Below are positions 12,786 through 15,722 of a stretch of DNA of 55,489 nucleotides, one piece after another. Position 1 is the first letter of the stretch. The number at the start of each line of letters is the position of its first letter. The notes under the pieces are model-generated. The model had not been told where the DNA came from and searched no databases. It saw only the letters and a list, made by a program, of their open reading frames with translations. The translations under genes were made by a program, and so were the position numbers. Source of the stretch: Alphaproteobacteria bacterium (GTDB lineage Bacteria; Pseudomonadota; Alphaproteobacteria; JABAAW01). The DNA lies in contig JABAAW010000006.1 in assembly GCA_014238535.1 (NCBI GenBank), positions 1 to 55,489 on the forward strand, in the 5' to 3' direction.

Positions 12786-12810
12786 GTCAGGCTAGGTACT
12801 TTAGTCAATT

Positions 12811-13000
12811 TGCGTCTATGGCTATCTTAAAAGGGGCATGGGGCATATTGCCACGCACGAATGGGAAAGCTCGGTCTGCGTCTATGATTATTTAAAGGGG
12901 GGCGTGGGGGGATGAATCCCCCCGCAAAAAAAGAAAAATCTTTAGGCAATAAACGAACTATTAGCATGTGTTGCGCGTAGCGTATCTTTTTTTGCATAAG
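12811..13000 (-). repeat. Inverted copy of the hairpin plus module B repeat (left flank of the AT-rich gene)
   Basis: 12891-13000 is a diverged reverse complement of 14092-14194 and 13811-13928. 12811-12857 is a further degenerate duplicate (tgcgtctatg..ttaaa(a)gggg occurs twice). Confidence 0.8.
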
Positions 13001-13062
13001 CGCAAGGTAAATTACTATTAAATGAAAATACAACTATTTTATTTTTATGCTAAAATAGCAAT

Positions 13063-13671
13063 ATGAGTGAAGTAACCTTCGATAGTATTTTTGCAGAGAT
13101 TGAAGAACATGCAAAAGATATTCGCATAAAAGAATTAAAGGAAAATGAAGACAGAAAAATAGCATGGCGGGATAGTGACTTACGCTGGATAAAGGACATT
13201 AGCTCGCCAAAGCAGCTGAGTAAAATCCTTCGGTCATTCCTACTGAAGATGATAGTAAAGGGGAATTTCCAATCCATAGAGGAAAAAACACAATCCAGGA
13301 AACATATTATATTAATCAACGATATAAATTTTCAGATAAAAACGTCTACAATTTGGCAAGGAGAGAAAAAAAGGCACTATAAATTTCAACAAATAAGAAA
13401 AAACAATTACGAAATACTTATTTGCTTTGGCTTGTCACCTTATGAAGCGCATTGTTGGGTTATCAAAAAAGACTGCATTATCGACGATGACAAAGAATGG
13501 ATAGATGATAGAACCATAGGACAACACGGTAAAAATTCGCGATGGCTTATAATAGACCCAGACGCAGTCGCAGATTGGCTACAGCCGCTCGGTGGTGATT
13601 TGCATGAAGCCTTGGCGGTACTGAAAGAAGCTATTCTTACTAGCGATAGTAAGCACGGAATGTTCACATAG
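13063..13671 (+). CDS. AT-rich hypothetical protein, PD-(D/E)XK restriction-endonuclease-like with degenerate catalytic motif
   Basis: Visibly AT-rich. IN..NFQIKTSTIW...YKFQQIR..NY..LICFGLSP..AHCWVI..GQHG resembles a family of putative type II REase-like proteins (recalled, not searched). QIK replaces E-x-K. Confidence 0.5.
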   Translation: MSEVTFDSIFAEIEEHAKDIRIKELKENEDRKIAWRDSDLRWIKDISSPKQLSKILRSFLLKMIVKGNFQSIEEKTQSRKHIILINDINFQIKTSTIWQGEKKRHYKFQQIRKNNYEILICFGLSPYEAHCWVIKKDCIIDDDKEWIDDRTIGQHGKNSRWLIIDPDAVADWLQPLGGDLHEALAVLKEAILTSDSKHGMFT

Positions 13672-13689
13672 CTTACGCATGGAGTTAGC

Positions 13690-14528
13690 GAGGACTCCTC
13701 CCTTGTGCGGAGACTCGTCTCTCGTGCTTTTTCAACGCAAACGAGCCACCAAGCGTCCAAGCCTAAAACTCTTCTTTGTTTTTGCGGGGGGATTCTCCCC
13801 CCACTCCCCCCTATGTGAAAAAGATGCGCTTCGCGCAGTGCCTGCTAAAGATTATTTACCATCGAAAGATGCTTTCTTCTTTTTTGCGAGGGACGAGTCC
13901 CGTGAGACGAGTCTCCGCGCTCCCTTTATGTAGACTAACCAAAGTCTAACAGACTCTCCTTGCTACCTTGTGCTTGTGGCGAGAGGCGTCCGCCAGGCAA
14001 CGCAAACGAGCCACCAAGCACCCAAGCAACCAAGCAACCAAGACTAAAATTCTTCTTTGTTTTTGCGGGGGGATTCTCCCCCCACTCCCCCCTATGTGAA
14101 AAAGATGCGCTTCGCGCAACGCATGCTAAAGATTATCTAACATCGAAAGATTTTTCTTTTTTGCGAGGGACTCGTCCCTCGCACTCCCTTTAAATTAGTT
14201 AATCGTAACTAATAGAGTCTCTGTTTTTTTACGAAGGTTTAGTCCCTCACTCTCCCTTTATGTAGACTACCAAAGTCTAACAGACTCTCCTTACTACCTT
14301 GCTATTACCTCGCGTGCTTGTGGCGAGTGCGTCCGCCAGGCAACGCAAACGAGCAAACAAGCACCAAGCACCAAGCACCAAGCACCAAGCACCAAGCACC
14401 CAAGCCTAATTTTTTTGTTTTTCTTTTTTTTTGCGAGGACGAGTCTCCGCGCTCCCTTTAAATTAGTTAATCGTAACCAATAGAGTCTCTGTTTTTTACG
14501 AAAGATTAGTCTCTCGCGCTCCCTTTAA
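13690..14528. repeat. Modular repeat array: a recurring hairpin/C-rich junction separating re-used modules
   Basis: Module B (ctatgtgaaaaagatgcgcttcgcgca...) at 13811 and 14092. Module C-A (tatgtagacta..aaagtctaac...caacgcaaacgagc) at about 13927 and 14259. Module D (taaattagttaatcgtaac...) at about 14191 and 14459. Confidence 0.9.
14358..14399. repeat. Heptanucleotide microsatellite (CAAGCAC)6
   Basis: Six perfect copies; the equivalent positions at about 13750 and 14014 hold fewer, imperfect copies. Confidence 0.95.
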
Positions 14529-14639
14529 GTTCTTTCACTGCAATTACAAGCGCATTATGTAACAATAGAATTCTACCATGTGCATGACAATTTGCTAGCA
14601 ATATAAACCTAGAACAGCAAGACACAAACATAGGCAACT

Positions 14640-15722
14640 ATGAGCAAACAAGCTAAACTACATATCGATTTTTTTGCAGACCTACAAATAGCAAGCAAAT
14701 CTAACCCAACCGCAATAGGATTAGGTCACGCACGGCGCATTCTAATCCTAGCAGAAAGCCTACAGCAAAACAATAGCCAGACAACCGAACTACGCTGCTT
14801 TTTTGACGAACCAAACCATGCAAGGCGGTTATTTCCACACACACAACTGCCATTTTTACATTGGTACGACACGAGTAGTAAGCACACCCCCCGCGATTTA
14901 CTGGTAGTAGATTCCTACCGCCTCACCGAGTTGCCCGCCCCTATTCGCAATAGCTATCGTCACATCGCTTGTTTTCACGATGACAAGAGCGCACCGTCCT
15001 ATGCGACAATTGCGATTTGCCCGAATGTCTCTGCACCGCCACCTTCGACCGATACACGCGGAGTGCATCACCTTACAGGAGCGATGTATTTTCCTTTTGA
15101 CCTTAGCCTAACCGATGAAGCATTATCACCGCGTGCGCAGGCGAGGGATGCGTTTCGCGTTATGCTCTGGCTTGGAGGAGATGAGGATGGCAGTAATGTT
15201 GCCCCTTTATTGAACGTTTTACTATCGTCGCCAGTCTTGTCGAATTTTGTGTTTGAGGTTATCCTCTCGCCGCTACTTACCTGTGATCGTGATATTTCGA
15301 GCGATTTGCGCTTGCACTTATCGTCTCCGCAAGTGCGCCTGCATCGAGATATTACTGCGATGTCGCGCTTATTTTCGTTTTGTGGCACCTATGTTGGAGG
15401 CGCAGGAGTTTCGAGTTGCGAGGCTGCGTTGCTTGGCTTGCGCTTGGTTCTTTGTGCGCTTGCAGACAACCAACGAGGCAATGCTAATTCTCTTGCACGA
15501 GCGGGTGCGATTTTATTTGACATTTCGCACCCACAGAGCCTATTGCTTGCATTTTTCTCGCTCCTTGAGGAGAGTCAAGATAGGCAACCTCTTAACTCTA
15601 CAGCACTTGCCTCTACGGCACTTGCCTCTACGGAGCGTGCCTCTAAGGCGGTTAGAGAATTGGGTTTTGACCGTCATGGTGCGTCTCGCCTCGCGAGCGC
15701 GCTTTTGCGTATTATCACCTGA
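14640..15722 (+). CDS. pseG: UDP-2,4-diacetamido-2,4,6-trideoxy-beta-L-altropyranose hydrolase-like (PseG/SpsG)
   Basis: IGLGHARR...LA, LLVVDSY, GGAGVSSCEAALLG, LADNQ..NA and D.HGASR; lies within the pse cluster. Confidence 0.75.
   Translation: MSKQAKLHIDFFADLQIASKSNPTAIGLGHARRILILAESLQQNNSQTTELRCFFDEPNHARRLFPHTQLPFLHWYDTSSKHTPRDLLVVDSYRLTELPAPIRNSYRHIACFHDDKSAPSYATIAICPNVSAPPPSTDTRGVHHLTGAMYFPFDLSLTDEALSPRAQARDAFRVMLWLGGDEDGSNVAPLLNVLLSSPVLSNFVFEVILSPLLTCDRDISSDLRLHLSSPQVRLHRDITAMSRLFSFCGTYVGGAGVSSCEAALLGLRLVLCALADNQRGNANSLARAGAILFDISHPQSLLLAFFSLLEESQDRQPLNSTALASTALASTERASKAVRELGFDRHGASRLASALLRIIT

Follow-up and report, generated by a model that had tools for sequence, protein, structure and literature searches.

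The interval 13690-14528 of contig JABAAW010000006.1, from the metagenome-assembled genome of a marine alphaproteobacterium (GCA_014238535.1, lineage JABAAW01), holds an array of short non-coding modules separated by a recurring junction motif. This array is one cluster of a dispersed, non-coding mosaic repeat family with about ten intergenic loci in the same genome (G000; 1.39 Mb in 91 contigs, 81.6% complete, 47% GC). The window analyzed here is the whole contig (C66), 55,489 nt read on the forward strand. In it the array is flanked by open reading frames (ORFs) of 202 aa (13063-13671, +) and 360 aa (14640-15722, +), both on the same strand as the array. It is probably a mosaic element of the kind represented by repetitive extragenic palindromes (REP), bacterial interspersed mosaic elements (BIME), neisserial intergenic mosaic elements (NIME), and BOX elements: a lineage-specific family of selfish or near-neutral hairpin repeats whose junctions act as points of recombination or slippage.

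Units were parsed on the + strand by cutting after each CTCCCTTTA or CCCCCCTAT. This gives seven units, each consisting of a body, a T-run, a GC palindrome framed by GCG...CGC, and a C-rich tail ending in one of these two strings, with the bodies in the order Cx, A, B.C, A, D, B.C, D. An earlier note on this DNA, made from the letters alone, had read the order as A, B, C-A, B, D, C-A, D; its A is called C here, its B is A, and its C-A is B.C, and after parsing at the junction ends the two orders match exactly. The note's view that this is not a simple tandem repeat also holds, as all that Tandem Repeats Finder reports are microsatellites, of period 7 at 14358-14405 and of period 8 at 14009-14042, with no array of long period. 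Recurrence is indeed non-periodic, with ten direct-repeat families at irregular spacing; a 28-nt junction piece, for example, is found in seven copies 66-201 nt apart. All five of the small hairpins named in the note could be located: TGCGC-TTC-GCGCA and ATC-GAAA-GAT in module A, TAGACT..AGTCTA in B, ATTAGTTA-ATCG-TAACTAAT in D, and TGGCG..CGCCA in C. The tail CTCCCTTTA has five copies in the window, all on the + strand and all inside the array, with 0.31 expected and none of 100 shuffles reaching five. The heptamer/octamer microsatellite of module C (CAAGCAC and relatives; 14358-14405, 14009-14042, and 11990-12180 on contig C21) differs in copy number in each module copy.

The junctions had been described as hairpins, and this is true of some of them only. 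As DNA, good folds are given by both copies of J2 and by the single J1, with dG from -7.7 to -9.6 kcal/mol and z from -3.2 to -4.8. The other junctions fold poorly. J1d consists of two small palindromes in an outer stem, with z -0.5; the J1b hairpin is weak, at z -1.3; and decay has left the two J1' copies with dG values of -1.3 and -2.0 and z about -0.5. Such decay within arrays (J1', J1b) is as expected for DNA under little selection. All seven array junctions are on the + strand, head-to-tail. Solo copies elsewhere in the genome show the core unit, in which CTAAAGAT and a T-run, the palindrome, and the tail are followed by (T/A)GTAGACT-N6-AGTCTAA. The basic unit is therefore ~90-100 nt of CTAAAGAT-T-run, GCG-palindrome-CGC, a C-rich tail repeating the 3' arm, and a small AT-rich hairpin. 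Many of the J loops in this genome (13779-14193 and others) hold GANTC (GATTC, GACTC, GAGTC, GAATC), the CcrM methylation site of Alphaproteobacteria; across the genome this motif is somewhat under-represented (4376 vs ~5363 expected from base composition).

A BLAST comparison of the region with its own genome found module blocks on contigs C21 (two loci), C54, C27, C11, C34, and C13, together with a second, reversed site in the window (12892-12997); a further family locus lies on C41. A regular-expression search of the genome gave 24 sites, of which 19 were judged by eye to be members and five were not (two on C4, one each on C19 and C55, and position 5334 of C41). Contigs C54, C21, and C34 break inside such arrays, leaving three arrays at contig ends. 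All ten loci lie between long ORFs, and three of the six with both flanks resolved are between convergent genes; units are found in both orientations relative to neighboring genes. The modules recur in different orders at C21 11648-12176, C21 1-330, and C54 1-560. The order is C/J1/D/J1d/D/J1d/B.C/J1b/B.C on C21 and D'/J2/A/J1d/D/J1'/B'.C/J2/A/J1d on C54. Some neighbors are fixed, with A following J2 in five of five array cases and C following B in five of five. Other neighbors are variable, with B after J1d in two cases and D in three, and with J2, J1b, J1, or a variant after C. C11 and C41 each have a pair of cores in facing orientation with a body between them. An intergenic stretch at C21 15390-15470 is a compound microsatellite, with GCCAGTTTTTGTT repeats followed by GCTTGTTG repeats, and is unrelated to the J family.

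Module copies resemble those at other loci more closely than those in the same array. Copy 2 of module A is 96.5% identical to both C54 copies, vs 91% to copy 1 of the same array, and B.C copy 2 has a 12-nt insertion in common with the last C21 unit. Local tandem duplication can therefore not account for the array, and blocks have moved or been converted between loci. Breakpoints fall mainly at the junction, where the note had placed them: four of six self-match (high-scoring segment pair) boundary pairs are in the T-run, hairpin, or tail and the other two are in the module C heptamer microsatellite. J1b corresponds to J1d minus one of its two GACGAGTC-bearing palindromes, and C21 1-330 holds a D-J1' unit joined directly to module C through a CTCGCG that the two have in common; these two derivatives are direct signs of slippage or microhomology deletion. 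Because breakpoints in a shared junction are also expected from ordinary homologous recombination, site-specific exchange, such as the cut-and-paste suggested in the note, and homologous exchange are indistinguishable here. With modules reordered at other loci, breakpoints at junctions, and exchange between loci, the note's "BIME-like mosaic" is a fair analogy. By the mechanism proposed, cores at different loci or within one array would recombine, with the shared junction supplying the homology, and arrays would in this way grow and re-sort; replication slippage and microhomology deletion would trim the products. The shuffling is presumably the work of host recombination or of template switching and not of a dedicated enzyme, and the array would have no sequence-specific cellular function beyond incidental effects at mRNA 3' ends.

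Within the genus the bodies (A, B.C, D) were found in the source genome only, while the cores are common. An 889-nt query matched five of six same-genus genomes, solely at J1 or J2 (query 108-151, 385-432, 485-533), and none of four same-order genomes; one match in a same-class genome is a 21-nt A-rich low-complexity sequence. The two best-assembled genomes of the genus are G003 (complete, 1.9 Mb) and G004 (four contigs). The J2 pattern occurs 88 times in G003 (46 forward, 42 reverse), 20 times in G004, and five times in the source genome, with no occurrences of the reversed-pattern control. The strand count in G003, crude as it is, with the two orientations interleaved along the chromosome, argues against a lagging-strand bias pointing to single-strand transposition. 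There, J2 is part of a long, nearly fixed hairpin mosaic consisting of a GCGCACGC hairpin, J2, a CCCCGC hairpin, an optional 15-nt palindrome, a CTAC...GTAG hairpin whose stem varies with complementarity always kept, and a terminator-like GC hairpin. In loci L019-L038 of this genome the 15-nt palindrome GGGGAATTTATCCCC is found at varying positions in otherwise fixed mosaics, and palindromes are nested within the loops of CTAC...GTAG hairpins. Patterns of this kind suggest that there may be very small, independently inserting palindromes.

Beyond the genus, the J1 core (GCGAGGGAC-NN-GTCCCTCGC-N-CTCCCT; 27 nt, 24 specified bases) is found exactly in at least 80 metagenome loci (82 matches, 69 distinct), with a mean GC of 0.68 and many of them on long contigs of one metagenome. 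It was absent, at up to one mismatch, from 400 other genomes drawn evenly across the class. In metagenome loci L050-L129 (~68% GC) an outer stem (GTTGAAGGG ... CCCTCAAC) lengthens the core, and 3' of it comes another conserved module (GCCGCGCCGCAGGC...GCGGCTTCGCCGC). Among the matches listed for the junction strings in the full-text literature there is no description of the motif, only unrelated primer and aptamer papers.

The array interrupts a gene cluster of the pseudaminic acid type. To its 5' side are genes for a helix-turn-helix (HTH)-cupin regulator, a GT4 glycosyltransferase, a PseB-like protein (Polysacc_synt_2), and a PseC-like protein (DegT aminotransferase); to its 3' side are genes for a PseG-like protein (TIGR03590, E 8.5e-17, below its cut-off), NeuB/PseI, and a cytidylyltransferase. 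The cluster is syntenic in G003, G004, and G001 (HTH-cupin, GT4, pseB, pseC, pseG, pseI, pseF), and in all three, the relatives holding the locus, pseC and pseG abut. By tblastn, the distance from the last aligned PseC residue to the first aligned PseG residue is 6 nt in G003, 6 nt in G004, 90 nt in G001 (where the alignment starts at residue 26), and ~1.9 kb in the source genome. Inserted there are a reversed A-J2 unit, the 202-aa gene, a terminator-like hairpin, and the array (Table 1). With 1.85 kb inserted between pseC and pseG, pseG-pseI-pseF may therefore depend on a new promoter, for which the weak site at 14543-14571 is a candidate. The terminator-like hairpin is an inverted copy of half of J1d (inverted repeat 13707-13724 / 13901-13918, 94% complementary) and was missed by the terminator consensus scan, as it has a 2-nt central loop and a bulge. 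In the genome contigs searched, PseG had no relatives and PseC one distant one, in an uncultured alphaproteobacterium. Between 10000 and 17600 the coding strand of the pse genes has a strong positive GC skew (+0.14 to +0.36), and the + strand of the array is C-rich (GC skew -0.18 to -0.26).

Table 1. Features of the insertion between pseC and pseG, by position in the window
Feature	Position	Strand	Evidence or closest match
Insertion, 1,854 bp, pseC stop to pseG start; specific to G000 among compared genomes	12786-14639		tblastn
Solo reversed unit: J2 hairpin (12892-12932) and diverged A-like body	12892-12997	-	
Terminator-like TGCGCGTAGCGTA and T-run from solo-unit body, read on + strand	12972-12984	+	Terminator consensus scan
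P0001, 202-aa type II restriction endonuclease family gene	13063-13671	+	PADLOC PDLC03515 REase_II
Terminator-like hairpin GTGCGGAGAC-TC-GTCTC(T)CGTGC and TTTTT, just 3' of nuclease gene	13705-13732	+	Read by eye
Cx, 3' part of module C without module B	13730-13778	+	92% to C21 11671-11706
J2: T-run, GCGGGGGGA-TTC-TCCCCCC, ACT, CCCCCCTAT	13779-13814	+	dG -7.7, z -3.7
Module A copy 1	13815-13879	+	94.6% to C54 413-358; 91% to copy 2
J1d: two 12-nt palindromes inside GCG...CGC stem, then CTCCCTTTA	13880-13928	+	96% to three copies on C21, C54
Module B.C copy 1: B hairpin TAGACT..AGTCTA; C with octamer microsatellite	13929-14059	+	
J2, identical to 13779-13814	14060-14095	+	
Module A copy 2	14096-14156	+	96.5% to both C54 copies
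J1: GCGAGGGAC-TC-GTCCCTCGC, A, CTCCCTTTA; best hairpin	14157-14193	+	dG -9.6, z -4.8
Module D copy 1 (14194-14223) and decayed J1' (14224-14261)	14194-14261	+	J1' dG -1.3
Module B.C copy 2, (CAAGCAC)x6.7 at 14358-14405	14262-14423	+	95-96% to C21 12068-12176
J1b: J1d minus one palindrome	14424-14461	+	100% over 37 nt to C21 12020-12056
Module D copy 2 (14462-14491) and decayed J1' (14492-14528); array right end	14462-14528	+	
Weak sigma-70-like site ATTACA-17-TAGAAT, 9 of 12, upstream of pseG; consensus match only	14543-14571	+	

The 202-aa protein (P0001) matches the PADLOC profile for type II restriction endonucleases (REase) with E 2.3e-19 over positions 33-174 of 186, and its lead in the ESM atlas, "Type II restriction endonuclease" (0.96), agrees with this. 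Nothing meaningful was found in Pfam or NCBIfam, and in PHROGs only a family of unknown function. The gene has a GC content of 0.32-0.37, vs 0.46-0.55 in its neighbors. It has no homologs in 40 relatives and a single close cluster in a set of 5.8 billion proteins, and its family comprises 347 representative clusters at E<=0.001 in a library of 1.84 billion. The best-supported account is that P0001 is a compositionally foreign, apparently horizontally acquired nuclease-family gene that splits the operon. It is bracketed by inverted J2 copies (12892-12932, -; 13779-13814, +) with their tails outward. An AlphaFold2 model from a two-sequence alignment had a mean pLDDT (predicted local distance difference test) of 37.4 and was not used. 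Read by eye from the alignment, the conserved D87...Q91-x-K93 looks like a motif of the PD-(D/E)xK type.

Restriction-modification genes behave as mobile units, and the low-GC type II endonuclease gene in a conserved operon, repeat-flanked here, is like them. It differs in that no methyltransferase gene is adjacent to P0001. Elsewhere in the source genome there are ten N6/N4 methyltransferase (PF01555) matches, which in 1.39 Mb suggests an unusually rich restriction-modification complement; the Dam-type methyltransferase (PF02086) has no match in this genome. A comparable arrangement is seen in G003 (L032, 237200-239400), where a 199-aa AT-rich GIY-YIG ORF lies between an H1-J2-H5 block (547-712) and its mirror (1566-1695). 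The mirror-image blocks there read H1-J2-palindrome-H5-GTAGCCTCTT. A 220-aa GIY-YIG paralog in the same genome (L048) has repeats on one side only.

A search for an enzyme that could mobilize the family found no dedicated one. The Y1_Tnp domain (PF01797) of REP-associated tyrosine transposases (RAYT) was absent from all seven genus genomes, including the complete G003, with six of 14 controls positive and the source genome 81.6% complete. IS110 and TnpB were likewise absent from all seven, DDE_Tnp_1 was absent from the three genomes searched, and rve gave weak matches in G005 and G002 only. There are two tyrosine recombinases each in G003 and G004 and one in the source genome, all of them XerC/D-like. 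None of five genus genomes has an integron integrase (TIGR02249) above the cut-off, the best score being 82 against 265 bits, with control genomes alike. Matches to GIY-YIG (PF01541) include UvrC in all seven genus genomes, and in the source genome UvrC alone. G001, G003, and G006 have extra AT-rich ORFs of ~200 aa matching half of the domain, which are not of the 94-aa SsnA type, and a more complete match, to positions 2-73 of 78, is present once in G005.

Support for the assembly comes from Logan contigs of the four sequencing runs found to hold the sequence, which are from one study, are labeled marine metagenome, and may include the source sample; all four are DNA runs, with no RNA run among those listed. 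All neighboring module pairs are covered by short contig pieces with 0-2 mismatches, including exact pieces at 14110-14337 (228 nt, A2-J1-D-J1'-B) and 13808-13928; stretches at ~13984-13995 and 14370-14379 are uncovered among the pieces listed. Contigs entering from the flanks end at 13799-13835 and 14438-14470. Summed contig depth, in which contigs of other organisms are included, increases from ~30x in the flanks to up to 468x in J1b-D, which is only a hint of additional copies. Joints in the contigs of these runs correspond to other loci of the source genome (module variants of C54 and C21), not to variants of the array locus. A scan of metagenomes for the same locus in other strains, using the 28-nt pseG start, gave no matches.

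Several observations weigh against a selfish or near-neutral mosaic. No terminal duplications, defined ends, or mobilizing gene were identified, so that the term "mobile" refers to distribution alone, and no single Logan contig of the four runs spans the array, leaving its long-range order without a spanning read. The main misfit is the patchy, exact occurrence of the J1 core at very different GC contents, which is more in keeping with a functional motif under constraint, or with horizontal spread, than with neutral junk. J1 and J2 differ at three of six stem pairs, all of them compensated, and the tail changes along with the 3' arm; this pattern suggests that pairing may be under selection. 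The GC-rich copies of J1 are mostly just 3' of a same-strand gene and 5' of a convergent one. By a codon-position GC test on the 69 distinct sites, where ORF-based calling is unreliable (37/69), the 300 nt upstream of the core are same-strand coding in 46, antisense in 16, and unclear in seven, and for the stretch 250-550 nt downstream the counts are 55 opposite-strand, seven same-strand, and seven unclear. Location downstream of same-strand genes hints at a role in RNA 3' ends.

This last point bears on an alternative in which the units are structured 3'-UTR (untranslated region) elements or small RNAs, transcribed with the operon or from their own promoters, with a single-stranded CUCCC(UUU) tail that pairs with Shine-Dalgarno-like GGGAG. 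Small RNAs with tandem C-rich motifs are known in Alphaproteobacteria. In its favor, along with the position of the GC-rich cores, the strand of the flanking genes, and the compensated stems, is that on either strand the fold of the complete array is more stable than that of shuffled sequences (z -8.2 and -5.8), but much of this is due to repeats pairing with each other. There is no match in Rfam, and the junction hairpins lack a trailing T-run on either strand (on the + strand the T-run precedes them, on the - strand an A-run follows); within the array, terminator-like sites are confined to the 5-bp stems of module A on the - strand. With two of seven junctions decayed, units in both orientations relative to neighboring genes, and the insertion absent from relatives, an RNA function is unlikely. 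An assembly artifact, in which short-read assembly would have collapsed the repeat copies of several loci and joined them in a chimeric order, is very improbable. The array is unspanned, flank contigs stop inside it, depth within it is up to 15 times that of the flanks, and three further contigs end in the same repeats, but each adjacency is covered by near-exact pieces, the two C-J2-A blocks are distinguishable, differing at 12% of positions, and both unique flanks continue into the array.

Two other alternatives would give the junctions a dedicated enzyme. The earlier note had likened the modules to gene-less integron cassettes, which an integrase would join at attC-like hairpins, and an imperfect hairpin recurring between variable cassettes in one orientation throughout is what such an array would look like. 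The analogy fails on the integrase, which was not found above the cut-off, the recombinases present being XerC/D-like only. The "cassettes" are also only 30-160 nt long and have copies throughout the genome; junctions are found alone and as inverted pairs as well; and inspection of the unit ends by eye, with no formal attC model, showed no GTTRRRY. An integron-like origin is extremely improbable. A less remote proposal, still quite unlikely, is that P0001 mobilizes J-bounded elements, or is a homing-type selfish gene that cuts the repeat and has been copied into it, with the array as a by-product. Its position between outward-tailed inverted J2 copies has the layout of the gene-less inverted pairs on C11 and C41, and in G003 an unrelated GIY-YIG gene, also AT-rich and nuclease-like, lies between complete inverted blocks, which is unlikely by chance at 88 J2 copies in 1.9 Mb. 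Against this, none of the six other genus genomes has a P0001 homolog, G003 with its many J2 copies included, the source genome has no small GIY-YIG gene, and the second G003 paralog has repeats on one side only. No single enzyme accompanies the family, and the repeats may merely gather around foreign DNA or help to recombine it in. A general form of the idea, similarly doubtful, is that J hairpins are the DNA substrate of structure- or sequence-specific nucleases encoded inside inverted J pairs, with unrelated nucleases in different species (REase-family here, GIY-YIG in G003). If true, this would be a RAYT-independent partnership of nuclease and hairpin repeat, parallel to RAYT/REP and SsnA/NTS, in which selfish nuclease genes home into or mobilize repeats and shuffled arrays are scars of repeated cutting and repair; cutting could be methylation-gated, via GANTC in the J loops.

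Mosaic intergenic repeats are well known as a class. What is new for the hairpin mosaic described here is a head-to-tail family with a core of T-run, palindrome, and arm repeat; its success in small genomes where the transposase families searched (Y1/RAYT, IS110, TnpB; DDE_Tnp_1 in three) were not found, apart from weak rve matches in two; a clean comparison of filled and empty sites, with repeats and a foreign REase gene interrupting an operon of the flagellin-glycosylation type (pseudaminic acid); and a 27-nt core that is letter-exact in unrelated, very GC-rich environmental bacteria. If the repeats aid the entry of foreign genes into operons, or are nuclease targets, this bears on the plasticity of streamlined marine genomes without insertion sequences.

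Among known systems, two candidates can be set aside. A CRISPR (clustered regularly interspaced short palindromic repeat) array is ruled out by the 66-201 nt spacing, the differing repeats, and "spacers" that recur in the array and elsewhere. A known Rfam RNA is also ruled out, as only three tRNAs elsewhere reach the gathering threshold; in a search of Rfam 15 extended to E<=10, the region had ten sub-threshold hits of 13-20 bits vs gathering scores of 40-100. The inverted core pairs on C11 and C41 resemble the layout of REPINs (paired REP sequences) and of miniature inverted-repeat transposable elements (MITEs). MITEs are marked by terminal inverted repeats, a target-site duplication, and a related autonomous IS; here inverted J pairs bound these two copies and P0001, with no target-site duplication identified and none of the transposases described above apart from the weak rve matches in two other genomes.

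The resemblance to REP and BIME of E. coli is that the repeats here are extragenic, multicopy, imperfect GC-rich palindromes forming mosaics with specific linkers. They also share a preference for gene 3' ends and convergent intergenic regions, some inverted doublets, and GTAG/CTAC near the ends. They differ in that successive palindromes are head-to-tail, not alternating, and that RAYT, there a single-copy gene usually with REPs on its flanks, is absent from the genus genomes. In the source genome GTAG is moreover not at the foot of the palindrome but after the tail (CTCCCTTTA-T-GTAG), ~10 nt away; the H5 hairpins of G003 (CTACGCGC-GTA-GCGCGTAG) do carry GTAG. Di Nocera et al. (PMC3733652) describe a CGTC class of REP, common in Alphaproteobacteria, without a dedicated transposase, and including dRS3, whose hallmarks are a CGTC tag, a stem starting with AT, and a CCA-like tail. 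The J1 and J2 stems start with GCG-AGGGAC or GCG-GGGGGA and have no unpaired CGTC tag, AT-first stem, or CCA tail. The dRS3 sequence itself (ATTCCC-N8-GGGAAT) is unrelated to the junction here, where the palindrome has a T-run before it and a C-rich tail, repeating the 3' arm, after it. In Neisseria, a ~94-aa single-domain SsnA-type GIY-YIG nuclease, its gene often flanked by the motif, goes with dRS3/NTS repeats (PMC11893778). Such a link is unsupported for the source genome, which has no 94-aa SsnA-type protein and, of this family, only UvrC. The BOX elements of pneumococci, boxA-(boxB)n-boxC, are described (PMC3049150) as modular and gene-less, with variable module number and order and without a transposase of their own. 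Compared by description, not by sequence, they are like the array in being gene-less and built of short modules variable in number and order, and differ in having fixed end modules and no recurring junction hairpin.

NIMEs, consisting of RS modules and dRS3, are closer still as an analogy than BIMEs. Their modules are 50-150 bp and their palindrome roughly 20 bp, and they have a role in gene exchange. As in the array between pseC and pseG, short non-coding modules are split by a recurring palindrome, are reordered at many loci, and flank variable or foreign genes.

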